From: Spirochaetia bacterium
Lineage (GTDB): Bacteria; Spirochaetota; Spirochaetia; SZUA-6; Bin103
Direction of reading: 5' to 3'
Assembly: GCA_965198005.1 (NCBI GenBank)
Contig: CBDAOI010000003.1
Coordinates: 832,001-896,000, forward strand
DNA: 64,000 bases
Part shown: one piece after another, positions 24,412-64,000 of the stretch
How positions within the stretch are numbered: position 1 is the first letter of the stretch
Layout of the letters: each line of letters opens with the position of its first letter
Program-made: the position numbers and the translations under genes
Notes under the pieces: generated by a model
Told to the model about the DNA's origin: nothing
The model's input: the letters and a program-made list of their open reading frames with translations, nothing else
Databases searched by the model: none

Positions 24412-25038
24412 TTACCGGGTTGCCTCCACAACGACGTCGCGGAATCGCGTGAAGCTGTTGGATCGGTTGCACCACGGATCGAAGTGACGCGCAACGGCAC
24501 GCGCGGCCTCAATCTTCCGTAAGCCCGTGGGATAGTATCCCGCACGCTTGAGGATTCGCTCGAACGCTTCCCAGGTTCCACCCGGAACTGCATCGGGATC
24601 ACGGAAGTTCGCTCGGCGCGGCACCGTCGCGGGCACTCTCGGGTATGCCCGGCGCACCGCGTCCCAGCTTCCGAAATACCACGCTTCCAACTCCTCGATG
24701 GCGATTCGGCTCACGACCTGCCAAGTTGCACCACCGGCCCGCGACCGGGGCAGTAGATTCGCGGTGGCTACCAGATCATCGAGTTGCTGCTTCAGTGTGT
24801 GACAGTCGTCCTGGTCGCGGTCTATTAGCAGGACGAGCCGCCAATTGGACGGTATCCAGTGTGCGTACGCTCGCAGGCGGTGCAGCAATTTGGTGCCCCT
24901 GGTGCCCAAGTGGCGCTTGTATGCAAACGTGTGAAGTGAGAAAGTGCACTCCGTGGGCAATATCCGCGGCAAGATTCCTCCGAGGAATGTCTCCATTGAG
25001 GGTTCCTCTACGAAGAACTCCAGATGTTGAGCCTTCAT
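24412..25038 (-). CDS. DUF4276-like (TOPRIM-type) protein
   Basis: [37 protein letters not shown]. Confidence 0.82.
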
Positions 25039-26264
25039 TGACTACCACGGTCCGTCGGAGCCCCCTCGTTTACGAGCGGGTCCCCCACACCGAGGTGTCC
25101 CTCCATCCACAGATCTCCAAGTAGTGCCCCTTCATCGGTGAACTCCGGGACACCGCGCTGGTCGACTGCCAATTCGCTGTGCGTGTACCCCTGTTCATCA
25201 CGCCATAGCACCCGTACCTCGTTTGCCCGTAACGCGTTCAGGAAGAACGGAGAATGTGTCGTGACGAGCAGCTGCGTACGCTCTGCGGCGGCCCGGCACT
25301 CCTCGGCTAGCTCCGGTAGTAGTCTCGGGTGCAGAAAGTTTTCCGGTTCCTCGATACCGATGAACGGCGGCGGCTCCGGGTCGTAGAGCAGGACCAGGTA
25401 CGCGAGCATCTTCAGGGTGCCGTCGGAGGCAAAACGGGCCATCACGGGGTTAATGAACGGAGCATCCTTGATCTGCAGCAACAAGCGCCCATCGGGCATG
25501 GTGTCGGCCAGCACTCGCTCGACACGTGGAACTCGCTGGCGCAGGACGCTGAAGATTTTTCTCAGCCGCTCCTGGTGTTGCTCGGCCAGATACTGGATCA
25601 CGTTAGCGAGGTTGTCGCCCGACCTGCTCAGTCGCTCCTGCGGACCCGCCTCAGGCTGTCCGCGGGCGCTATCGGACGAAAGATACGAGACGTACCAACC
25701 AGTGATGAAGTTTCGGAGCGCCGCGACACGCGGATGTTCGGCGAACTGTCCTAGTGCGTTCACCGCCAGCAGATCGGGCGCATTAAGGGGTATCTCAACC
25801 CGTTCGGCGTGTTCATCCGGCTCGTCACCCCTTACCGCTCGACCCAGGCCACCGCGATAATCAAGGAACCGAAATGGTTTTCCGTGTCGGCCGCGGCGCC
25901 AGCTCAACCACTCCTCCTCCACTCTGGGCTTGCCGTGTGTCTCGTCGACGGCAAGATGGTAGGTGATCAATGGGAGACTCGGGCGCTCGCGATACTTGAT
26001 TTCAATCGTTACCGGACCGGTCGTCCCGCGTGACTTGAGCTCGCGAGCACGTCCGCGTCGGTCCCACGCACGTCGCAAGCCGGTTTCAAAGCAGTCGGCG
26101 AGAAAAGCAAATACGTCGAACACCGTGGACTTGCCGCTGCCGTTGGGGCCGAGCAGTGCGGTGAGAGGCTTCATGCTCTTGAATTCGACATCGCGGAGAG
26201 CGCGGAAGTTGCGCACATGCAGCCGCTCGATCCGTGCCGGGCGAGGAAAGGCTATCGAATCCAC
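25035..26264 (-). CDS. AAA_21-type ABC ATPase
   Basis: [36 protein letters not shown]. Confidence 0.9.
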
Positions 26265-32211: not shown

Positions 32212-33237
32212 CTACGCGGCGGCGGGGCCGTCCGCGGCCGGCCCGACCAGCCGCGGCAGGAAGCCGGCGACCGCAAGCTGCCACAGGTGGTACATGATCA
32301 GCGGCAGCAACGCCAGACCGAGCAGGTCCGGGTCGCCCGCGAAGAACGTCGTCAGCAGCGGCGCGCCCAGGGCCAGCGTCTTCTGGGGCGCCACGAACAG
32401 CGCGGTGCAGGTGTTGGCGCGGTCCAGGCGCAGGGCGCGCGCGCCGCTCCACGCCAGCCCCAGCAGCAGCAGGTGGGACACCGCCAGGTAGCCCAGCAGC
32501 GGCCAGAACCGCAGCAGCGACGGCGCGAAGGTCGGATCGAGGGCCGGCCGCGAGAACGAGAACCAGACGATCACCACGATGGCGCCGTTCATGAATACGC
32601 CGAACCGTCTGCGCTGGCGTTCGATCCAGGCGCGCAGGCGCAGCCGCAGCACCTGGCCGATCGCCACCGGCAGCAGCATCTGCAACGACAGCGAGGACAG
32701 CATCCGCAGCAACTCCTCGGCCGGCAGCGCGCGGCCGGTCCGCTGCAGCAGCCAGGACAGCAGCAGCGGCGACAGGAACACGCCCAGCACGTTCGCCAGC
32801 GAGGCGTTGAAGATGGTTGCCACCACGTTGCCGCGCGCGAGCTGGGTGAACACGATGCAGCTCGACACGGTGGTGGGCAGCACCGCCAGCGCCAGGATGC
32901 CGGCGACGATGCGCGGGTCGCCGCCGCGCCACAGCAGGGCGGCGGTGGCGGCGAAGTACAGCGGGCACACCGCGAAGATGAAGAGCTGCAGGAACAGGTG
33001 CAGGCGCACGTCGCGCAGGCCGGTGCGGATCGCCTCGGTCGGCAGGCTCATGCCCGAGGTCAGAAACAGCAGCACCACCAGCACGGTGGCGGAGGCGCCG
33101 TCCCGGCTGACGGCGACACCGGCCCGCGGCGCGGTCAGCCCGACCGCCACCGCCGCCAGCAGCCCGACCAGGAACCAGTTACGCGCGAGCCAACTCGCGG
33201 CGTTCCGGGCGCAAGGTGTGATTCCGCTCAAACCCAT
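32212..33237 (-). CDS. Bile acid:sodium symporter family transporter
   Basis: NWFLVG, LPTTVSSC.VFT..A.GN, QKTLALGAP, YHLWQL. Confidence 0.9.
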   Translation of the reverse strand: MGLSGITPCARNAASWLARNWFLVGLLAAVAVGLTAPRAGVAVSRDGASATVLVVLLFLTSGMSLPTEAIRTGLRDVRLHLFLQLFIFAVCPLYFAATAALLWRGGDPRIVAGILALAVLPTTVSSCIVFTQLARGNVVATIFNASLANVLGVFLSPLLLSWLLQRTGRALPAEELLRMLSSLSLQMLLPVAIGQVLRLRLRAWIERQRRRFGVFMNGAIVVIVWFSFSRPALDPTFAPSLLRFWPLLGYLAVSHLLLLGLAWSGARALRLDRANTCTALFVAPQKTLALGAPLLTTFFAGDPDLLGLALLPLIMYHLWQLAVAGFLPRLVGPAADGPAAA

Positions 33238-34049
33238 TGCCCAGTGTTCCGGCCCAGGAAGGCGGGTCGCGTCCGAACAGCCGCCAGTGCCAGGATGATG
33301 CGATAGCCACCACTGAGCTGGTCGAGAGTGAGTTCTTCCGGCGGTCCCGAATCCGATTCCAGGGATACGACAAACCGAAGTGGACCGAGTTCGATACATG
33401 GCTCGGATGCGCCAGGGATCATCGACGTGATTGCCGTGCGAACCGCCTCCAGTTGTTTTGATACAAACCGCCGTCGGCGTCTCTGCTGCTCCCTGAGTTC
33501 CTCGCTTTCCTTGGCGTAGAACCACTTGAAAAAGTCACGGAAGTTGGGACGAAGCGAAAGCGCCCCCTCCAACGCGGCGTAGCGGGAAAACTCCTTGGGG
33601 AACCCGCGCCGTCGTTGAGGAGCATCGAATACGGCGCGATCGGTGTCGTAGAAGGCAACAATCGGCAGGTCGAAGTCACGGCCCGCTTCGTCCGCGTTGA
33701 TGATGTCGTCGACCGCCTCACGCAGCGACCGACCGCCAACGGACTTCGGTCTCCTCGTCGAACGCTTGTTTACTCGTCCCCTGCGCCGAACCCATACTAG
33801 GCCGTCGGTCGTTTCCAGCGTTACGCGTACGTATTTCGCAGACCGCCTCCGATCCGTATCACGAAACGAGATGCCGGAGACCTCCGGCAGCAAAGTCGGA
33901 ATAGCGCCCAGGCCAACGGCGATCGCGCTCAGTACACTTGTCTTTCCATGTGCGTTGTCGCCGTGAAATACGGTCAGAGATTCGTCCGGAGCGAGCTTGA
34001 GATACTTGATCACGCGATAATTCTCGATTTCGACCGAGCGCAGCTTCAT
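33228..34049 (-). pseudogene. AAA/ABC ATPase (PtuA-like), 3'-truncated
   Basis: IENYR, GDNAHGKTS, QLSGGYR signature, then ends without Walker B or H-loop. Confidence 0.75.
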
Positions 34050-53039: not shown

Positions 53040-53308
53040 TCGGCGGTGCGCCAGTACACGGCCGCCGACTACGTGGCTGAGGCGGCATGCTGAGCCGGGA
53101 GGGGCGGCAGTACATGGAGATCGCGCCGCACCTGGCGCTGTGGCCGGGGGTGTGCCTGACCGTGGTGGTCTACATGTTCGGCGACGCGGTGCGAGATCTC
53201 TTGGACCCCCGCCTGCGCGGCCGGCTCGGGCGCTACGGCGCCGGCAGTGGCCGGCGGGCCGACGGCCCACAGTCAAGCTCTCCCACCGGGCCGGGCAGCC
53301 CGGCGTAG
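53040..53308 (+). pseudogene. Collapsed dppB/dppC-like permease remnants
   Basis: 53040-53076 (SAVRQYTAADYV) resembles 57191-57228 and sits next to a permease C-terminus GMLSREGRQYME...FGDAVRDLLDPR. Confidence 0.8.
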
Positions 53309-53386
53309 TCACGGAAGCAATAGCGTTCCGGGTAATGCTTGCCGGAACGCGTGGCGTTGGCTACCCTCGGATGAGCGAGCGTACTT

Positions 53387-54040
53387 ATGGCCGAAGGCAA
53401 CGAACACCGCGAACCCGCAACCCCGCAGGAGATCTGGGAGATTCTCCGCGAGGTCTCCGCAATGCAGCAGGAGACTGCACGCCGTATGCAGGAGACCGAC
53501 CGGCGGCAGCAGGACACCGATCAACTGCTCACGCGGCAGGCACGGGCCGCCGACCGGCGCATGGACAAGCTGGAGGAGCTGTTCAACGGGCAGTGGGGCA
53601 AGCTGATGGAGTCCCTGGTGGAAGGCGACCTCGTAGGGTTGCTCCAGCAGCGAGGCATCGTGGTGCAGCACACGGTAACCAACCCGCGGCAGAACTACGG
53701 TGAGCGGCGCTGGGAGTTCGACCTCGTGGCGATCAACGGCGAAGAGGTCGTGGTGGTGGAAGTCAAGACTAGCCTGAGGGTGCCGGACGTCGATCGTTTC
53801 ATCGGTCGGTTGAACGAGTTTCGGGAACTGATGCCGGAGTACGCCGAGCGGCGGATCTACGGGGCGGTTGCGTATCTGAAGGCCTACCAGGAGTCGGAGG
53901 TGCGAGCCGAGCGGCTGGGCCTGTTCGTGATTCGCGCCACCGGCAGCAGCGCCAGCATCACCAACCGGGAGGGGTTCACGCCGCGCGCGTTCGGTCACCG
54001 GAGCACGGCACCCAGCCGCCCAGCGGAGCGCTCCGACTGA
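53387..54040 (+). CDS. Coiled-coil + PD-(D/E)XK nuclease-like protein (DUF3782-like)
   Basis: QET.RRMQETDR coiled coil, WG.L.E.LV, EFDLVAING..VVVVEVK, YGAVA. Confidence 0.8.
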   Translation: MAEGNEHREPATPQEIWEILREVSAMQQETARRMQETDRRQQDTDQLLTRQARAADRRMDKLEELFNGQWGKLMESLVEGDLVGLLQQRGIVVQHTVTNPRQNYGERRWEFDLVAINGEEVVVVEVKTSLRVPDVDRFIGRLNEFRELMPEYAERRIYGAVAYLKAYQESEVRAERLGLFVIRATGSSASITNREGFTPRAFGHRSTAPSRPAERSD

Positions 54041-54473
54041 CCCCGGCGCTCGGCGGGTCGGCCGTGGGGGACGGACGAGTGACTACGCAAGCCAGACCTG
54101 CCACCGGTTGACGCTCCTGGCGCCTCACAGCCGCCGCGGCTCCGCGCCGGCCCGCGGCCTCGGCCGGGTGGCGGTAGCTGCCGGCGGCCAGCTCAGAGTG
54201 CGCACCCGCGCCTGTCGCCGGCTCGGATGATCGGTGCGCGCACGCCATCTGGCGGCCCTGCGCAGTGTCGGCACCGCCCGACCGGGCTGCAGGCGCCTCA
54301 CTCCCCTGTGTGGTCGTCGCAAAGAGCCGCACCCGACCATTTCTTCAACAATTTCGCCATCCGGGCCTTCTTGGTTATATTGGGGAGGTGCAGTCAATCG
54401 GCGCCACACGTATGCATAGCGCGTCTCAACTTCGGAGGGTTCGGGTGACCTACAACAAGTTAACGCTTATGAC

Positions 54474-54844: not shown

Positions 54845-56659
54845 ATGCACTACGCAATCTTTCGCAAGATCCTCGCGGTACTGTTCGGTCTCGTCCTGAC
54901 CGCAACCGGCCTCTGGGCCAGCGCCGCGGAGGAAGAGGAGCCGGCCGCGGCGATCGAAAAGGAAATGGTGATGGACCCCACTACCGGCAAGATGGTGACC
55001 GCGCCGGAGTACGGCGGGACATTAACCTATCCCTATAGCAGAGTAGGCGATATTACAGACCCCTTTTTTAATGGCATCGAAGCGGGCTGGCTCATAGACG
55101 GTGTTAATGAGAAACTCGCCTACGGGAACTGGGGACTAGATATAGAAGAATTTGACTTTTCAAACCCTTACGTCCCTTTGTTTGCCTTCACAGGGAATCT
55201 GGCGGAAAGCTGGGAAACGCCCGACGACACAACGATAATCTTCCACATCCGTCAGGGCGTTCGCTACGCTCTTGATCCGGACAGTGAGGCTAGCCGCCTA
55301 TTGAACGGTCGGGAGCTAACTGCCGATGATGTCGTATATAACTATCAGCGAAATAACGCTCTGGGTGACTTCACCGAACGTGTCCATCTTCCTGGCCCGG
55401 CTCACAACCTGCCATGGGAATCGATAGAGGCCACCGACAAATATACGGTTGTTATGAGGTTGACGAAGCCTCAGCTCGGTGCGCAAAGGACTATCTTCGC
55501 CGAAGCTATAGATTGGATATTACCCCCCGAGGTGATCGAGAAATACGGCGACTATAAGGACTGGAAGAACGTGGTCGGCACCGGGCCCTTCATACTGACC
55601 GACTACGTCGAAGGCGTCTCCAAAACCTATACCAAGAATCCTGACTACTGGGGCTTCGACGAAAAATATCCGGAGAACCGCCTGCCCTATATTGACCAGT
55701 TAAGGGCTCTTTGGATGGCAGACGAAGCAACACGTATCTCGGCAGTACGCACGGGTCAGGTTGATCGAATACTACACGCCGGCGTCAATGACATAAAAAG
55801 CCTAGACGTGGTAAAGAGCCTCCAGGGGACCAACCCCGGAATCCTGGTGCGCGGTTTTAGCCAGGGGTCGTTTGCTTCTTTTGGTCTGAACATTCGCAAC
55901 GCGCCCTTTGACGACATCAGGGTGCGCCGCGCACTGCAGATGGCACTGGACCTCGAGACGGTTAACGATACCTACTACGCCGGTTATGCAACGGTGGAAC
56001 CTAGGGGGCTTGTCGGCGTCAAGGGGTTTTACACACCATTTGAAGAGTGGCCCGAAGAGCTCAAGCAATACTACAGGTATGACCCGGAAGGTGCTGAGAA
56101 GCTCCTTGATGAGGCTGGGTACATACGCGGCGCGGACGGCGTTCGATTCAAGACCACCTATGACCACCGCGACATCTTAGATTTGGGCTTTGCAGAAATA
56201 GCTGCCGGCTACTGGGCTGATATTGGCGTTGATGTCACGATTAATATTGTTGAAACGGCGACTTTGGTCGCTAATAAAACAGAACTAGATTATGAGATGA
56301 TTTCTGGCAATATGTCCATGATTACGAGCCCTGAGTGGATCATGGGCAATTATCGCTCAGAGACACAATGGATGAACGAATGGACGGGCGGAGCCGAGAC
56401 CCCTGAGCTGACCGCCGCCCAAGATGCCTTTTTCGCCGCTACCACCCTTGAGGAGCGGATGAAGGCATCTAGAGAGTTTGATATGGCCCTGGTGAACCAG
56501 CACAATCAGATATGGGGTCCTATGGTTGCAGTGTATCAGTTGACTCAGCCGTGGGTCGGAGGTTTTAACGGAGAATACGCGATGGGAGACATGAACCATC
56601 ATACCATCATCGCCCGCCTCTGGATCGACCAGGATCTGAAGCGAGAAATGGGGTTCTGA
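54845..56659 (+). CDS. ABC substrate-binding protein, family 5 (DppA/OppA-like)
   Basis: AGGAG RBS; P.YGGTL, LAESWE, GRELTADDV, VGTGPF, KNPDYW, PF.D.RVRRAL..A.D, YDPE.A..LL.EAG. Confidence 0.93.
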   Translation: MHYAIFRKILAVLFGLVLTATGLWASAAEEEEPAAAIEKEMVMDPTTGKMVTAPEYGGTLTYPYSRVGDITDPFFNGIEAGWLIDGVNEKLAYGNWGLDIEEFDFSNPYVPLFAFTGNLAESWETPDDTTIIFHIRQGVRYALDPDSEASRLLNGRELTADDVVYNYQRNNALGDFTERVHLPGPAHNLPWESIEATDKYTVVMRLTKPQLGAQRTIFAEAIDWILPPEVIEKYGDYKDWKNVVGTGPFILTDYVEGVSKTYTKNPDYWGFDEKYPENRLPYIDQLRALWMADEATRISAVRTGQVDRILHAGVNDIKSLDVVKSLQGTNPGILVRGFSQGSFASFGLNIRNAPFDDIRVRRALQMALDLETVNDTYYAGYATVEPRGLVGVKGFYTPFEEWPEELKQYYRYDPEGAEKLLDEAGYIRGADGVRFKTTYDHRDILDLGFAEIAAGYWADIGVDVTINIVETATLVANKTELDYEMISGNMSMITSPEWIMGNYRSETQWMNEWTGGAETPELTAAQDAFFAATTLEERMKASREFDMALVNQHNQIWGPMVAVYQLTQPWVGGFNGEYAMGDMNHHTIIARLWIDQDLKREMGF

Positions 56660-56660
56660 A

Positions 56661-56807
56661 TCAATCGCCCCTTGGGCGATTGAAATGGGAGTCGCTGCGC
56701 GACTCCACGGAAACCGCCAGAGGCGGTTTCCATTGCAGCAGTGCTCCGCGCGGCTGCTCTGAACAAGGGCGCCGGGAGAACGCTTGCGAGCGCGCTTCCC
56801 GGCGCCC
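56661..56807 (+). promoter_or_regulatory. Array of intercistronic stem-loops
   Basis: Perfect inverted repeats 56661-56683, 56688-56706, 56709-56731 and 56767-56807. Confidence 0.75.
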
Positions 56808-56822
56808 ATTTACCACGAAGAT

Positions 56823-57777
56823 ATGAGAGCCTACATCATCCGGCGGCTGCTGCTGGTCATCCCGACCCTGTTCATCTTGAGCGTGTTGGTGTTCCTGTCC
56901 GTCCGCTTCATCCCCGGCGACGTCATCGACATCATGGCCAGTCGCACGCTATTCGTGGGCGCCCGGCTCGACCGCGCGGCCATCGAACAGCGGCTCGGTC
57001 TGGACCTCCCGATGCACGTGCAGTACGGCCGCTGGATCGGCGGCATCCTCCTGCGCGGCACCCTCGGCGAGTCGCTGCTGGGCGGTTGGCGGATCGAGGA
57101 GCGCATGCTGGGACGACTGCCGTCACCGCCGAGCTCGGGCTGCTGGCCATCCTCATCGGCTTGGTCATCGCCCTGCCGGTGGGCATCTACTCGGCCGTGC
57201 GCCAGTACACCGCCGCCGACTACGTGGGACGGTCGATGGCCATCATGGGGCTGGCGACGCCCAACTTCTGGCTGGGAACGATGGTGATGATCTACCCGGC
57301 CATCTGGTGGACGTGGTCGCCGCGGATGGAGCTGGTCCCCTTCGCCCAGGACCCGCTGGGCAACCTCGGCATGTTCCTCATCCCCAGCCTGATCCTGGGG
57401 ACCTACCTGTCGGCCAGCACCATGCGCATGACGCGCACCATGATGCTGGAGGTGCTGCGCCAGGACTACGTCGGACCGCCTGGGCCAAGGGTCTGCTGGA
57501 GCGGTCGGTGATCCTGCGCCACGCGGTCAAGAACGCGATCATCCCGGTGGTGACGCTGGTGGGCATGCAGCTGCCGATCCTGGTGGGCGGCTCGGTGATC
57601 ATCGAGAACATCTTCAACCTGCCGGGGCTGGGGCGGCTGATGCTGGACGCCCTCAACGACCGCGACTACCCGGTGGTGTCGGCGGTGAACCTGTTCTTCG
57701 CCACGGTGGTGGTGTTCGTCAACCTGGTGACCGATCTGCTGTACGCGTCGCTGGACCCGCGGATTCGCTACGAATGA
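56823..57777 (+). pseudogene. DppB/OppB-like permease with two frameshifts
   Basis: YIIRRLL..IPTL...PGD; single-base losses near 57120 (RLP/VTAEL) and 57471 (QDYV/RTAWAKG); ends LDPRIRYE*. Confidence 0.88.
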
Positions 57778-57800
57778 GGCAAAGGCAATGAGGGAAGCCC

Positions 57801-58208
57801 GTGGGTGACGTATCACAGCTGACTCCGGCCGTCGCCGAGCCGGCCGCGGGCGCGGCTGCGGCTGGGCACGCCGGAGCGCGGCGGTTCTTCGGACGGCTGG
57901 TCCGCGAGCAGCCGCTGGGGACGGCCGGCGGCATCGTTCATCCATGGGGCGCGGCTGTCGCTGACGGTGGGGCTGGCAGCCACGGCTACTTCCAGGCGGC
58001 GCAGGCGATCGGCAGCTCGCGCCGGCGCTCGCTGCTGCGCCACGTGCTGCCCAACATCGCGGCGCCGATCATCATCATCTTCAGCATCAACGTCGGCGGG
58101 GTGATCATGTCGGAGGCGGCGCTGAGCTTTCTGGGCTTCGGGCTGCCGCCGGACATCCCGAGCTGGGGCGGGATGCTGAGCCGCGAGGGGCGCCAGTACA
58201 TGGAATGA
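57801..58208 (+). pseudogene. DppC/OppC-like permease, internally deleted and truncated
   Basis: QPLGTAGG jumps to AAQAIG...RHVLPN...EAALSFLG.G.PP..PSWG.ML, stops at YME*. Confidence 0.85.
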
Positions 58209-58255
58209 ACGCTCGCGGCCACGGGGCTGACCCGAGAGACCGTGTGGTCTTGGGC

Positions 58256-58642
58256 CTACGGGGGCCGCGCCGCCGCGGCGTGCGACCGCAGCTTACCGTA
58301 TCGCTCACAGAAGAAGCGAACACACTCGGGGGCCAGATCAATCGTTTGCTCATCCTGTTCGCCGGTCTCGGGATTGGGCCAGACCAAGGCGTAGTCGGCT
58401 CGAACCATACGGAATCGTCTCTTGTCCCTCAGCAATTGAAACACGACGCCGGGATTCTCCTCGATCAGGAGCGGCCGAAAGTCCAACTCGTAGATGGAGA
58501 CGTCCAGTTCTTCCTCAAACCAGAGTCGCAACATGTAGTCGGTCACGTACTCAACCTTCAGCAAGCCTCGCTCCCATCGGTTCGTCCACTTCCTCGGGTC
58601 ATCGGCTACGGCTCGCCACTCGCTCCATCGCATGGTCTTCAT
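58256..58642 (-). CDS. DUF2442-like protein (TA partner)
   Basis: KVEY..DY.LRLWF, F..L.D...F..V, LVWPN...IDLAPE. Confidence 0.75.
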   Translation of the reverse strand: MKTMRWSEWRAVADDPRKWTNRWERGLLKVEYVTDYMLRLWFEEELDVSIYELDFRPLLIEENPGVVFQLLRDKRRFRMVRADYALVWPNPETGEQDEQTIDLAPECVRFFCERYGKLRSHAAAARPP

Positions 58643-58882
58643 CCCACTACGGAAACCGGCTGCCCCCGCCGGGATCTATCCCACTGCTCCAGATTCGATC
58701 ATTCTTCGCAGACGGGGTGGCAATGCCACGCCGGGCCGAAGCCACTCTCTGGTTCTGATGTCGAGCCGATAGCTGCGGACATCGCCTTGATACCTGACGT
58801 GTACGTGTGGCGGCGCATGGTCATTGTAGTTCATCAGGACGACCAGAGCACCTTGCTTGAAGGGATGCGACACCGGTGGCAT
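58639..58882 (-). pseudogene. DUF4160-like protein with an internal frameshift
   Basis: MNYNDHAPPHVHVRY; expected tail LEQWDRSRRGQPVSVVG* is in another frame and overlaps the DUF2442 start (ATGA). Confidence 0.72.
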
Positions 58883-59292
58883 TTGCCATCTCTCAAGTTT
58901 GAGTATACGCCCCTCGACCTAGTAGGTACAGTCAACGCCTTGACGGGCGAATGAGTCCGGTCGGTCAGTCTTTTCTCAGCGAACGGCCGGGCTCACTGGT
59001 GCAGGGGCGGACATCAGGGTAGGCCAGCGCGGTCGTGCTCGGCGACGCGGAGGCCGCACGAGGTGAGCCATGACGGGTCAGGAGCCGCCACAGCCGCCAA
59101 ACTCAATAACGTGCTGAATGGCGCTTGACTGCCCTGTCGCGCGTGTGCAAGGGTATCGGAGTTGGGACTCGAACGGATGTCGATGATGAGTGACTACGCG
59201 ATCCAGCCCTGCCGCGGGTTGACGCCACTGGCGTCCCACAGCCGCCCGCCCGGAGTGGCCGCCCTGGCCCATCCCGTCCGTTCGCCTCTGTA

Positions 59293-59310
59293 CCCCCCCC
59301 CCCCCCCCCC
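59293..59310. repeat. Poly-C tract (18 C)
   Basis: Directly abuts the 5'-truncated IS4-like transposase. Confidence 0.9.
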
Positions 59311-60366
59311 ACGCTGAAGGGGTTGCGCAAGTACAAATCGGTGGACAACCTGCTGCGCACGCTCTTGATCCATCTGGGCTGCGGGCACTCGTTGCGTGAG
59401 ACCGTGGTGCGGGCGCGGCAGGCGAATCTCGCCGATCTGTCCGATGTAGCTCTGCTGAAGCGCCTGCGGAAATCAAAGGACTGGTTGTACGCCCTGTGCG
59501 TTCAGCTGTTTCAGGAACACGGCATCGCGGTGGCGACCGACGGCGGCTTTCAAATCAGGGCGTTTGACGCCACCACCGTGAAGGAGCCGGGCAAGACCGG
59601 AGCGCTGTGGCGCATCCACTGGAGCGTATGCCTGCCGTCGCTGGCGTGCGACTTCTTCAGGCTCACGCCAACCGAGGGGCCGGGCACCGGCGAATCGTTG
59701 GTTCAGTTCCCGATTCGCGCCGGCGATCATGTAGTGGCCGATCGCGGTTACTCGACAGCCCGCGGTATCGGTTATGTGGCGGCCGCCGGCGGTCAGCTCA
59801 TCGTACGCGTCAATACCGGTGCGCTGGGGCTGCGCACAACCCAGGGTGAGCGGTTCGACCTGCTCGCCGCGGTCAGTTCGCTGAAGCGTGCCGGCGCCAC
59901 CAAGTCGTGGACAACGCAGGTGGTGATCAAGGATGACAGAGCACAACCGGCCAGAACCGTACCCGGTCGAGTGTGCGCGCTGCGCAAGTCGGCAGCAGCG
60001 ATCAAGCTGGCGCACCGCAAAGTCCGCCAGGAAGCAGCACGCAGGGGTAAGCGGACGCAAGCGGACACGCTGAGGTTTGCCGAATACGTGATCGTGTTCA
60101 CCACCTTTCCGGCGGCGAGCTTCAGTGCCGCCGAGATTCTGGAGTGGTATCGCATTCGCTGGCAGGTGGAGTTGGTGTTCAAACGGTTCAAATCGTTGGC
60201 GCAGTTGGGCCACCTGCCGAAATACGACGACGACAGCGCCAAAGCGTGGCTGTACGGCAAGCTGCTGGTTGCGCTCCTGGTCGAGAAGCTGATCCGCCAT
60301 GCCAGCGCTAGTTCCCCCTGGGGATACGACTTGGCGCCGTCAGCGGCCACCCAGTGCGTGGCGTGA
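59311..60366 (+). mobile_element. IS4-family DDE transposase, 5'-truncated
   Basis: SDVALLKRL, FDATTV, ADRGY, WYRIRWQVELVFKRFKS (YREK-like). Confidence 0.88.
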
Positions 60367-60639
60367 CTTCAGGTTCGTGCTGGGCCAGGTCACCCGCACC
60401 ATCGAACCGGCTCTGCCACTGGCGCGCTATCTCGCGGGCGCTGGCTGAGCCGCCACGGCGCCGGCTGTCTCAGTTGTCAGCTTACTTCGATCAGCAATTC
60501 TCGGTGAACGGAAGTGAGAGGGTCGGCGTGGGGGGCAATGGCGGGCGGGACGGCACGTAAGTGGTCGTATAGGTCATGAGCATGTAATAAGTTGCCTACC
60601 GGCTGGACACTCGATCCCAGGGTTGTCATGCTGTCTCCT

Positions 60640-61973
60640 ATGGCAAGAGGTCGCCGCAGAGGTCCATTTTTACTTCGTTTTCGTGCGCTCCTGGTCTCCT
60701 TGAACCTGCACGCCGCCAAGGTCGTCGATACGCGCCAAGCCAGCAAGGTCCGGTACTCCCTGCAGGATTGCTACGTGTGTGCTTTCGCCTTGTTTACCTT
60801 CAAGACCCTTCCGTGCTGGAGTTCCAACGCCGCTTCCAGGACGAACTCCGCACCAACAACCTCAACTCTACGTTTGGCGTCGCTCGGATCCCTGCCGACT
60901 CCCAGTTCCGCGATCTGCTCGACAGCCATGACTATGAACCGCTGCTCGGCTGCTTCGGCGACTGGATAGGGCGCATGCAGGACGCCAAATGGCTGCAGCA
61001 CTACCAGTTCCTCGACGGTCGCTACCTCATCACCATGGACGGCTCCCAGTACTTCAGCTCGTACAAGGTGAACTGTGAGTGCTGTCTGACCGCCACCAAG
61101 AACGGCACCGTACGCTACCACCACGACATCCTGCAGACCGCCATCGTCCACCCCGACAAGCGGCAGGTGCTGCCGTTGGCTCCCGTGTTCATTCACAACG
61201 CCGATGACTCTGGCGCCAAGAATGCCAAACGCCGCAAGCAGGACTGTGAAATAAAAGCCGGCTACCGTGCCTTGCAGCGCATCCGTAACGACCATCCCCG
61301 GCTGGCTGCGGTGATCGTCGCCGATAGTCTGTACTCCAAGCAACCGTTCATCGAACAGGTGCGCGCCGCCCGCTGCTCGTTTCTGCTGGTGGCCAAGCCG
61401 GAGGATCACACCAGCCTGTACCAGGATATCGACGGGCTGCGCCGCGGTCGGCTGCTGGACCACCGCTGCACCATCGACGCGACCGGGGACCGGCATGAAT
61501 ACGAGTGGGTTACCGGGGTGCCGCTGAACGGCAACCCCCGCAGTCCCCAGATCAACTTCGTGCACTACCGCATCGTACGTGCCGGCACGACCACCTATCA
61601 AAACGCCTGGGTGACCGACTTGGTGCCGACCGCTGGCAGCGTAGCGCGGATCGTGCGTGCGGGACGAGCACGCTGGAAGATCGAGAACGAGGGGTTCAAT
61701 ACGCTGAAGAACCAGGGCTACCACCTGGAGCACAACTTCGGCCACGGTGACAAGTACCTGTCGGAGGCGTTCTTCCTACTCAACCTGCTGGCCTATTTCA
61801 TGCACCAGATATTCGAGCTGGTGGACGGTCTGTATCAGCAGGTGCGGGCTGGGTTCGGGTCGCGCCGGGAGTTCTGGGGCGCGGTCCGTGCCACGTTTCG
61901 GCTATTCCTGTTCCCGTCGTGGGACCAGGTGCTGGTGCGGATGAACTCGCCGCCGCAGCCGCTGTCCGGGTAG
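60640..61973 (+). mobile_element. DDE transposase (ISNCY-like) with a frameshift near 60795
   Basis: D.RQ.SKV.YSL.D then FQDPS.L.FQ in the next frame; DGSQYFSS..V.C.CC, KQDCE, ADSLYS, GRARWKIENE.FNTLKNQGYHLEHNFGHG. Confidence 0.85.
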
Positions 61974-62494
61974 CCGCTCCCTGGAGAACTGAACCTGCTC
62001 CCTGAACGATCCCTGACGAGGGCCGCGGCGCAGGTGTGCCGGCCGCGGCTGAGCACCGCCCCCGAAGGCCGATCGCCGCACCGCGCCAGCCCGCGGCATC
62101 GGCCGAGCGGCGGTGGCTGACGGTGGTCAGGTCATCGCACGGGGCTGCATGACGGTGGCTAAATACTTCACCTGCAATCAGTTACAGAATTTCTGCCGGG
62201 TCGGACCGTGGGTGCATTCACTCGGTGGGCCAACAGGTGGGCATGGTCGCGTTTCACACTCGGAGGGCTTGAGCTTATGACAGGGCTTGCGGTCTCGCCC
62301 TCAAAACTTTTCTGTAACCTTTCGGCCCCCAATGTTGCATTACTGTTTATGATGCTCCGCTGCTCCCCGAGAATTGCTGCCGGTGACGTCCGAGTCGTTG
62401 ACAGGGTGGTCGCGCCCACGCTATCATGCCTGGCTTGGGGCGACGGATGCCGATGAAGCGCTATGAAGACAGTCAGCGCGGTGACCGGTTGCCG

Positions 62495-62710
62495 GTGACG
62501 CCGCGCGATGAGCGCGTTGGGTCGCTGTTGACACGGATTCGGGCGGCGGCGTACAATCTTCGGCGAATGGGCACCGACAGCATCCAGCCCAGTCGCCGGC
62601 CAGCGGTGACGAAGCGCGATGAGCGGGTTGGGTCGCGCTTGACACGGATTTGGGCCGGCCTCTACACTCGTCCGCGAATGGGCACTGACGCCATGCAGCC
62701 CAGTCGCCGA
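62495..62710 (+). repeat. Two imperfect 111-bp tandem units, each containing a sigma70-like promoter
   Basis: TTGACA-18-TACAAT (62528-62557) and TTGACA-18-TACACT (62639-62668). Confidence 0.8.
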
Positions 62711-62736
62711 CTACCGACTACCGACTACCGACTACC
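62707..62736. repeat. Heptamer tandem repeat (ccgacta)x4
   Basis: ccgactaccgactaccgactaccgactacc. Confidence 0.9.
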
Positions 62737-63100
62737 TAACCGCGCGACAGCCAGCCGCTCGGCGCCGGTGCTGACCGCGGCACCATCAATCCGCGCGGCA
62801 CACAGCCGTGCGTGTGGCGGCGGACCGCGTCGGCCGCAACCTCCACCAGTCTACATCAACCGGCGTTGCCGGGACTTCAGAAGAGAGGGGCACATCTGCG
62901 CCCGACCGAGGGGGTGCAAAATGATACTCAAAGAGCCGCACGCGCGCGCGGCGTGAGCCGGGGTGAACCCGTTGAGTCACACGCCGCGCGCTCTTAGTGA
63001 ATTTGACTCAGACTGGCCGTCTGCGTTGCGGGCATGAGAGTAGCCAGGGAGCGGCAAGTCGCTCCGCAATACTCTCGAAAATCAAGATCCGGAGTTACGC

Positions 63101-64000
63101 ATGAACTTTGTAAAAATTAGAATGACCTTCGCGTTTGCGTTGGTCCTCGTAATGACCGCAACCGGCCTCTGGGCCGCTGGCGCAGAAGAGGAGCCGGCAG
63201 CCGCAGCTGAAAAGAAGTATGTGACCGATCCCACCACCGGCAAGGCGGTAACCGCGCCAGAGTATGGCGGGACAATAACCTATGGCGAGGTCAGTTGGGC
63301 TGAGCATAGTGATGCCTGGTACATTACTGGCTGGGCGGCACAATCCATCGCTTTGGTTAATGAGATGCTCGGCATCGGGGACTGGGGAATAGATAGGGAC
63401 GTATGGGACTGGCGGCTCTTAGCAGACACACCTCTATGGGCCTGGAAAGGGGCACTGGCGGAAAGCTGGGAAACGCCCGACGATACGACCATTATCTTCA
63501 ACATCCGCACGGGCGTTTACTGGCACGACAAGGCACCGATGAACGGTCGGGAGCTGACTGCCAAAGATGTAGAACATCACTGGCAGCGTATGTTGGGTCT
63601 GGGCAAGTTCAGTGAAGCCGGACCTAGCCCAATGGCAACTGCCATGAAGCCAGCGAATTACGAGTCGGTAACGGCCACCGACGATTGGACAGTCGTTTTC
63701 AAGCTAAAGGAGCCAAACCTTCGCGCCCTGCCAGAACTTCTCGGCTGGCACATGGCTTTTATATACCCTCCGGAGGTCATCGAGCAACACGGCGACTATA
63801 AGGATTGGCGGAACACGGTCGGCACCGGACCCTATGAGCTGACGGAGGTGGTCGAAGGCAGCTCTAGGACCTGGACCAAGAATCCCGACTACTGGGGCTT
63901 CGACGAAAAATACCCGGAGAACCGCCTGCCCTATGTTGACAAGATAATAATGTTGTTTATGCCAGAAGGGGCAACTCGTCTGGCGGCTCTGCGCGCGGGT
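63101..64000 (+). CDS. ABC substrate-binding protein, family 5 (runs off window end; not in ORF track)
   Basis: MNFVKIRMTFAFALVLVMTATGLWAAGAEEEP...DPTTGK.VTAPEYGGT, LAESWETPD, KNPDYWGFDEKYPENRLPY; paralogue of 54845..56659. Confidence 0.92.
   Translation, partial: MNFVKIRMTFAFALVLVMTATGLWAAGAEEEPAAAAEKKYVTDPTTGKAVTAPEYGGTITYGEVSWAEHSDAWYITGWAAQSIALVNEMLGIGDWGIDRDVWDWRLLADTPLWAWKGALAESWETPDDTTIIFNIRTGVYWHDKAPMNGRELTAKDVEHHWQRMLGLGKFSEAGPSPMATAMKPANYESVTATDDWTVVFKLKEPNLRALPELLGWHMAFIYPPEVIEQHGDYKDWRNTVGTGPYELTEVVEGSSRTWTKNPDYWGFDEKYPENRLPYVDKIIMLFMPEGATRLAALRAG

Follow-up and report, generated by a model that had tools for sequence, protein, structure and literature searches.

The last part of a 64,000-nucleotide (nt) stretch of a Spirochaetia genome (contig CBDAOI010000003.1, positions 832,001 to 896,000 of the forward strand; hereafter the window) carries two paralogous genes for family-5 substrate-binding proteins (SBPs), here called SBP1 and SBP2. 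Boxes of DNA that the two genes share even at synonymous sites alternate with segments that barely align and use A/T-ending codons, which raises the question of how such genes diverge. The earlier note on this DNA likened them to vlsE and tprK, with the boxes as anchors of homogenisation and the segments between them diversified by gene conversion or by local hypermutation toward AT. We find that the observation of boxes and A/T-ending codons is right and that the vlsE-like reading is not. Instead, SBP1 and SBP2 are likely to belong to a family of SBP-permease modules that is exchanged horizontally, has a base composition of its own and carries a junction at the 5′ end.

SBP1 (54845-56659, forward strand) is an intact gene of 604 amino acids for a family-5 (Dpp/Opp-type) SBP (PF00496, E = 6e-64). 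SBP2 (63101-64000, forward strand) comprises the first 300 codons of a second paralogue (PF00496, E = 3e-36), which continues for 903 nt past the window end; the complete gene lies at C3:895101-896903 of the genome holding the window (G000; 4.89 Mb, 4 contigs, 66% GC). Both exceed the Pfam SBP_bac_5 cut-off of 32.4 bits, SBP1 with 216.9 bits and the part of SBP2 with 125.9. The AlphaFold2 model of SBP1 (mean predicted local distance difference test score, pLDDT, 88.1; predicted template modelling score, pTM, 0.84) has its best Foldseek matches among DppA/OppA structures (E 1e-35 to 1e-30, template modelling score 0.6-0.8), and 172 PDB chains match it at E <= 0.001, headed by DppA, OppA, AccA and NikZ. 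Sequence identity to solved structures is only 16-21%, and phmmer against PDB gives E 2e-19. Based on this model, SBP1 is predicted to have a Dpp/Opp-type fold, that of a large SBP with an extra domain. The two genes are 62.5% identical in nucleotides and 49% in amino acids, and the closest paralogue of SBP2 reaches 68% amino-acid identity over the body.

Shared boxes in a family of 121 intact paralogues

We collected the family by tblastn of SBP1 against G000, taking as intact those genes in which at least 540 of the 604 residues are covered. The search returned 217 high-scoring segment pairs, 121 of them with this coverage, and grouping gave 187 loci, of which 121 are intact, 26 are interrupted by frameshifts or internal deletions and 40 are partial. 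This confirms the expanded SBP repertoire that had been supposed from the window. The 66 broken or partial loci lie scattered on all four contigs and correspond to arbitrary portions of the gene.

Downstream of the intact genes (within 4.5 kb) we found permease B in 118 of 121 cases and permease C in 110 of 121; near-full-length matches genome-wide number 134 (B) and 125 (C). The C-terminal domain of Opp/Dpp ATPases (oligo_HPY) has only 8 matches in G000, about four pairs, and many SBP-permease modules must therefore share a few ATPases. The one module examined holds no ATPase gene, and the full Dpp-like operon of an SBP, two permeases and two ATPases was not found. Each SBP gene would normally head an ATPase-less module of one SBP and two permeases. 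The expansion is genus-wide: first-look candidates number 56-259 in the eight genus genomes listed as at least 88% complete, compared to 21-22 in the sister genus and 2-21 in other families of the order.

Synonymous and nonsynonymous differences per site (pS and pN) have family-wide medians of 0.57 and 0.37 in the SBP genes. Across 84 modules, permease pS tracks SBP pS (r 0.73 and 0.51) at 0.49-0.53, with a pN about half that of the SBPs, suggesting that whole modules were duplicated and that the SBPs diverged faster. We also considered operon-scale concerted evolution of the permeases relative to the SBPs, which is unsupported family-wide as pS tracks at similar levels. Where modules are near-identical, their permeases can still contain local patches of lower identity.

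The three boxes of SBP1 and SBP2, all on the forward strand, are present as first described. Box 1, at the end of the signal peptide, matches at 23 of 23 nt (54897-54919 in SBP1, 63153-63175 in SBP2). Box 2, the LAESWETPDD motif, matches at 26 of 26 nt (55200-55225 and 63456-63481) within an exact run that is longer, 29 nt (55199-55227). Box 3, the TKNPDYWGFDEKYPENRLPY motif, matches at 58 of 60 nt (55631-55690 and 63875-63934), and the ratio of nonsynonymous to synonymous divergence (dN/dS) is 0.26 in that window of the gene. The peptides quoted for the intervening segments are likewise found in the two translations. In the family, box 1 recurs with at most 2 mismatches in 78 of the 121 intact genes, box 2 with at most 6 in 90, and box 3 with at most 6 in 40.

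By our own arithmetic, a uniform match rate of 62.5% would produce an exact run of at least 23 nt in 1.8 kb about 0.014 times, and the boxes are thus more than uniform chance would give. They do not stand out against a null that takes into account the sites conserved across the family. We scanned 7251 paralogue pairs under 90% identity for conversion tracts using such a null, in which the per-site match frequency of the family is shifted to the overall identity of the pair, with a family-wise threshold of 18.4 (log-likelihood score). The best SBP1-SBP2 tract is box 2, which scores 8.5 and is not significant against this threshold; the null of the pair itself has a 95th percentile of 7.9 and a maximum of 8.08 (20 replicates). 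Significant tracts were found in 177 of the 7251 pairs, nearly all in the first 100-200 nt: coverage per 100-nt bin is 92 and 11 in the first two bins and 0-2 in every later bin. Diversification of the body by segmental conversion, as the earlier note proposed, does not fit these counts beyond nt 200. More generally, exact DNA boxes between paralogues need to be judged in such scans with a null aware of family-conserved sites.

The behaviour of pS with increasing divergence separates the 5′ end from the rest of the gene. Comparing the closest with the most distant class of pairs, pS rises 2.6-3.4-fold in five body-box regions (2.62 for box 2, 3.16 for box 3) and 2.2-2.7-fold in the variable segments. 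For codons 1-40 the rise is only 1.59-fold, and pS in the closest class is already 0.37 compared to 0.18-0.33 in the body. Accordingly, the body boxes have evolved together with the gene, unlike the 5′ end. Boxes 2 and 3 are conserved protein motifs of the family and not homogenised tracts, as part of an explanation that we hold, as a whole, to be probable. Of the proposed homogenisation at anchors, the part that stands is the one at the 5′ end, in the module containing box 1. The codons of the boxes would still be shared because synonymous divergence between the paralogues is unsaturated and conserved columns favour G/C-ending codons.

Between the boxes the picture is one of divergence without shuffling. 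For example, the variable segment of codons 61-85 (55025-55099, forward strand) has an amino-acid identity to SBP2 of 0.20-0.45, with pS and pN both 0.53 and a third-position GC content (GC3) of 0.45 in SBP1 and 0.60 in SBP2. Over the aligned genes, SBP1 and SBP2 differ with pS 0.48 and pN 0.34, and pS stays at 0.23-0.6 over most of the gene. The dN/dS of the family is 0.83 for pairs with pS 0.1-0.3 and 0.71 for pairs with pS 0.3-0.45; along the gene it peaks at 0.93-1.17, with 0.97 at codons 62-76, and falls to 0.16-0.31 in conserved windows. Close counterparts differ at positions scattered along the body, within the permutation range, in 11 of 13 pairs. The segments between the boxes would thus have diverged by ordinary substitution and small insertions and deletions, under weak constraint or diversifying selection, and would be inherited stably once diverged. 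The diversity of the bodies may reflect a diversity of ligands. In four public runs the short contigs break in the family, and the joints between SBP1 and SBP2 that they contain have sides of 21-31 letters and are unreliable (flagged under 30); the best share of the words of the stretch in one run is 0.44.

Probable module exchange and the 5′ junction

For comparison across genomes we sampled 40 genes from four related genomes and 20 from two distant ones (G021 and G022), chosen among the best hits. A tree of 61 bodies, 21 from G000 and 40 from the related genomes, contains tight cross-species pairs. Paired bodies are 95-99.8% identical in nucleotides between species, whereas a 12-kb ribosomal-protein/elongation-factor (EF) region is 72-80% identical between G000 and the same four genomes; syntenic genes of the window are 79-87% identical to these genomes. 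Tracts with 100% identity or close to it start early in the SBP gene, reach into the permeases and are about 3-4 kb long; their flanks do not align. Near-identical bodies set against this core identity, together with the unaligned flanks, point to recent horizontal exchange of modules. In the window, the SBP2 region 62909-64000 matches the genome G005 at 94%.

The exchange seems to extend beyond the genus. G021, which is labelled Dehalococcoidia, has 60 matches to the family and G022 has 132. The longest matches of the ribosomal-protein/EF region to G000 are 71% (G021) and 65% (G022) identical, and no short fragment over 100 nt in this region is above 75%. Five of the 20 genes sampled from these two genomes are 88-96.6% identical to particular G000 paralogues, body identity reaches 92-97% with the two distant lineages, and the permeases downstream are 77-90% identical. 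Judging from these identities, it is likely that SBP-permease modules have been exchanged horizontally both between species and between distant lineages, again as part of the explanation as a whole. The listings and abstract beginnings covered by a literature search held no description of this SBP family or of its exchange.

The exchanged bodies are joined to different 5′ ends. Among 15 pairs with near-identical bodies, 11 diverge over the leader and the initial 60-150 nt of the coding sequence (CDS), with only 53-93% identity there; three of the remaining pairs are collinear and one is mildly divergent. Between cross-species counterparts, identity climbs to 97-100% from about +60 to +150, and 9 of 10 such pairs have 77-91% identity over the first 165 nt. 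With the distant hosts, homology sets in at CDS positions +98, +127 and +129.

The N-terminal modules upstream of these positions are typical of the host. In G000 the module is a Sec-type signal peptide ending in TATGLWA followed by an acidic linker, and G022 has a different Sec signal peptide. In the third host, G021 (loci L063-L072), a lipoprotein-type signal with its Cys precedes tandem VPGETVVVEKEV-like repeats, and these take up at least about 100 residues of the N-terminal sequence that was read, ahead of the shared body. From its sequence, this long repeat region looks like a cell-surface tether. In SBP1 the export module comprises codons 1-43 (54845-54973, forward strand), with the signal peptide and a linker of Glu, Pro and Ala, and residues 1-38 have a pLDDT under 50 in the AlphaFold2 model. 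It is followed by the first conserved box of the mature protein (DPTTGK..APEYGG, codons 44-58; 54974-55018, forward strand), which is the zone joining host module and shared body. Codons 41-50 have a GC3 of 0.92, the maximum of the gene.

The leader and signal-peptide module of SBP2 (62500-63191, forward strand) provides an example within G000. It is near-identical to that of a distant paralogue at C4:2002140, including an exact run of 402 nt (window 62789-63191). Of the 15 40-nt bins between about -600 and the ATG, 13 show 98-100% identity and one shows 90%; further on, identity is 88-90% at +81 to +160 and 62% or less thereafter, and the whole aligned CDS is 68.5% identical. The corresponding tract scores 29.6, above the threshold of 18.4. 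SBP1 has no comparable leader partner, its best leader match being 81%.

Sharing of 5′ ends is pronounced in the genome G001, where 6-9 of 19 sampled paralogues from the same genome are closer at the 5′ end than the body partner is. Nine G001 genes share one signal peptide (5′ identity 86-97%) and have bodies 68-81% identical. The approximately unbiased (AU) test rejects the monophyly of these nine bodies (delta log-likelihood 3066, p-AU 0.000125), for a group that was defined on columns outside the tree but after the tree had been seen. Over all sampled pairs, the excess of 5′ similarity within a genome is small (0.78 compared to 0.76 at body identity 0.7-0.8). Homogenisation of the 5′ end is thus strong in G001 and not general.

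The position of the junction is read directly from these alignments. Recombination would act at the module boundary, at about codons 33-58, and join an exchangeable body to a host-typical leader and signal peptide (or lipoprotein tether), and the 5′ module would also be copied among paralogues inside one genome. We infer that the junction is made by homologous recombination within the first conserved stretch of the mature protein, the box at codons 44-58, which would give this box the role of an anchor.

Base composition and alternative explanations

The composition of the genes sets them apart from the rest of the window. GC3 is 0.623 in SBP1 (overall GC 0.533) and 0.647 in the part of SBP2, compared to 0.879 +/- 0.076 in 37 Pfam-validated genes of the window, where A/T-ending codons are indeed rare. 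The family has a mean GC of 0.569 and a mean GC3 of 0.689, and the permeases have a GC of 0.59-0.60. Within the family, GC3 increases with conservation (Spearman 0.27, p 4e-11), the least conserved columns having 0.62 and the most conserved ones 0.75; it never reaches the 0.88 of the host, and the rise holds in 16 of 17 amino acids taken singly. The A/T-ending codons are thus confirmed; variable columns do have the lower GC3, but the offset is gene-wide.

The same low GC is found in homologues from genomes of 45-69% GC. Among the G021 and G022 homologues fetched, 19 of 20 have a GC of 0.52-0.56; the flanks, read at one locus each, have about 0.62 (G021) and 0.45 (G022). One orthogroup keeps a GC3 of 0.82-0.84 in both a GC-rich and a GC-poor host. 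Changes polarised in 10 trios are balanced, with 95 from GC to AT and 88 from AT to GC, and give an equilibrium GC of 0.53 compared to a current 0.55. At the third positions of variable columns the counts are 34 and 31, and the balance holds in every class. This balance contradicts the suggestion of local hypermutation toward AT, and it also rules out an ongoing decay toward A/T. An equilibrium composition that is family-wide and kept across hosts indicates that the composition belongs to an exchanged pool and not to local mutation. The low GC, described earlier as local to the variable segments, covers the whole gene and fits such a pool: it would mark modules of about 54% GC that move between species of the genus and distant lineages.

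Two other causes of the composition were considered and rejected. High-expression codon usage does not account for it, as the genes for GroEL, EF-Tu, EF-G and L2 have a GC3 of 0.86-0.92. Nor is it a general trait of periplasmic binding proteins, as two SBPs of other families in the window have a GC3 of 0.88 and 0.91.

How else could boxes and variable segments arise? One model, that of vlsE in Borrelia and tprK in Treponema, is gene conversion by segments that come from other copies and are anchored in the conserved boxes. This too is a spirochaete-labelled lineage with conserved and variable stretches in the gene and many related copies in the genome; the large paralogue pool and the 66 partial or broken copies could act as donors, the alternation is real and a few internal tracts exist. 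However, there is no single expression site, since each of the 121 full-length genes comes with its own start and signal peptide, and 118 of them also with a permease. The broken copies are dispersed pseudogenes and not silent cassettes, significant body tracts are nearly absent from the 7251 pairs, and the pS of the boxes follows the divergence of the gene. Counterparts in other species and in distant hosts moreover have the same variable segments. Unlike vlsE and tprK, then, the bodies are stable across species and the conversion tracts are restricted to the leader and signal peptide at the 5′ end, which makes this model very improbable here. We also regard as unlikely, though less so, a more modest conversion between paralogues in short and perhaps GC-biased tracts, which would keep the body boxes alike and G/C-rich while regions that cannot pair drift apart toward A/T. 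Conversion clearly occurs at the 5′ end, GC3 does rise with conservation, and pS in pairs with pS 0.1-0.5 is 0.26-0.35 in the most conserved windows, those of the boxes, compared to 0.54-0.68 in the most variable. On the other hand, box pS climbs with whole-body pS as steeply as elsewhere or more so, which is unexpected if boxes were homogenised independently, and pair-specific box tracts are not significant. Codon preference at conserved sites and misaligned variable segments explain the same pattern.

Targeted or local A/T hypermutation of the variable segments, for instance by a diversity-generating retroelement, would agree with the lower GC3 of variable columns. In addition, G000 has 32 matches to reverse transcriptases (RVT_1), at least 17 of them near-identical frames of 538 amino acids, and many lie within a few kb of SBP loci by their coordinates. 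Nonetheless, the two reverse-transcriptase loci examined out of the 32 both prove to be group II introns (RF02005, 170 and 183 bits), the polarised changes show no bias in any class, and the GC offset is not only gene-wide but operon-wide; we consider this mechanism extremely improbable, although no search aimed at template and variable repeats was made. The cross-genome identities, for their part, could in principle be chimeric artefacts of assembly or binning at repeated genes, given that all the genomes are metagenome-assembled, that the family is highly repetitive and that short-read contigs break there. Yet G021 and G022 are recorded as whole chromosomes and G001 as one contig. The N-terminal module on the shared bodies differs from genome to genome and is typical of the host, the flanks differ in composition, and identity varies by module from 71 to 99.8% and is not 100%, all of which leaves an artefact highly improbable.

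Several observations weigh against the reading of SBP1 and SBP2 as members of an exchanged family whose bodies diverge by ordinary substitution. The earlier note had named uniform synonymous divergence and a lack of tracts as what would speak against conversion; tracts are nearly absent from the body, but pS is not flat along the gene, as the contrast of conserved and variable windows given above shows. Short conversion tracts in the boxes, too small for the scan, could contribute to this unevenness, although it would arise equally from misaligned variable segments and from codon preference at conserved sites. At codons 455-535 (window about 56207-56449) the pS between SBP1 and SBP2 is 0.63-0.92, above the range elsewhere, and identical amino acids almost never share a codon; the segment could have a separate history or be poorly aligned. 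Differences are clustered in 2 of the 13 close counterpart pairs, a body tract of 178 nt at 97.8% joins two paralogues 80% identical overall, and SBP2 shares a stretch of 169 nt at 97% with its closest paralogue (raw scan without the null). A dN/dS near 1 is compatible with positive selection and relaxed constraint alike. Finally, no near-identical counterpart of SBP1 was found in the four related genomes searched (best 83%), and the exchange was read from a sample of best hits.

Wider reading and the surroundings of the two genes

By analogy, the modules can be placed beside two known systems. They resemble DppA/OppA of E. coli and Salmonella with DppBCDF/OppBCDF (cluster C) in PF00496, in fold and in the order of an SBP followed by two BPD_transp_1 permeases, but differ in having about 190 loci per genome instead of a few and a module without ATPase genes. 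Lineage-specific expansions of orphan solute receptors are known from the Bug (tripartite tricarboxylate) family of Bordetella and Cupriavidus, which likewise has a hundred or so paralogous periplasmic binding proteins per genome, presumably widening the substrate range. Bug proteins belong to another protein family; here, by contrast, nearly every SBP has its own permease pair, modules appear to pass from species to species, and about one locus in three has decayed.

Several per cent of the genome is given to some 190 binding-protein loci that would be traded across species and even phylum boundaries. The tradable part, the ligand-binding body with its permeases, is cleanly separate from the host-bound part, the leader with its signal peptide or tether. 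A tentative reading, which we think less likely than the exchange itself and rather doubtful as it stands, is that the modules form a shared kit of uptake specificities for unrelated bacteria, whose bodies are plugged into the leader and export or anchor module of the host by recombination in the first mature box. If true, a symbiont could change what it imports without re-evolving regulation and export, and the junction would be a built-in adaptor and not an accident. The separation of a tradable from a host-bound part offers a natural experiment on how transporter repertoires are assembled in host-associated communities, on the constraints that export signals place on gene transfer between bacteria whose envelopes differ, and on why a gene family can hold a base composition 15 points off that of its genome.

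Runs labelled sponge metagenome contain fragments of the stretch. In an RNA library with the same label, contigs match pieces of the stretch (193 and 188 nt) without difference, which firmly shows neither transcription nor habitat.

Downstream of SBP1, its own module is damaged. Permease B (56823-57774, forward strand) is broken into three frames, with tblastn pieces in frames 1, 3 and 2 and frame breaks near 57122-57140 and at 57472. In contigs from other runs one more G follows 57121 and one more A follows 57472, and the frameshifts are either real decay (a pseudogene) or assembly indels. Permease C (57801-58205, forward strand) is a remnant with an internal deletion and a truncated end, in which residues 1-46 and 170-266 of 313 are matched.

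Between the two SBP genes lie a DDE transposase open reading frame (ORF) at 59323-60366 (forward strand; PF01609, E 1.7e-16) and, upstream of SBP2, a multi-copy insertion sequence (IS) element at 60555-62500 (forward strand; transposase ORF 60768-61973, PF01609). The element of the window matches G001 at 96% and G005 at 97%, and about 25 further copies in G000 match a G001 copy at 91-98%. It stands just upstream of the SBP2 leader and may help to move modules.

Other repeated elements also occur beside SBP genes. Group II introns with reverse-transcriptase ORFs lie 0.25-2 kb upstream of SBP genes in either orientation, at G000 C4:683227-685036 (727-2536 of the fetched locus L052) and at a C3 locus (about 1337-3330 of L076). 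Upstream of the SBP1 leader is a multi-copy stretch (53076-54079) containing an ORF with a weak Hjc-like match. Its piece of about 170 nt at 53076-53243 matches several dozen loci in the four related genomes at 78-89%, and the remainder matches sites beside other G000 SBP modules at 88-95%.

Elsewhere in the window, two further regions have a GC3 of 0.66-0.70 compared to 0.88 in their neighbours: 24415-26264, encoding a DUF4276 protein and an AAA_21 ATPase, and 33231-34049, encoding an AAA_23 ATPase. These genes were probably acquired, possibly for defence.

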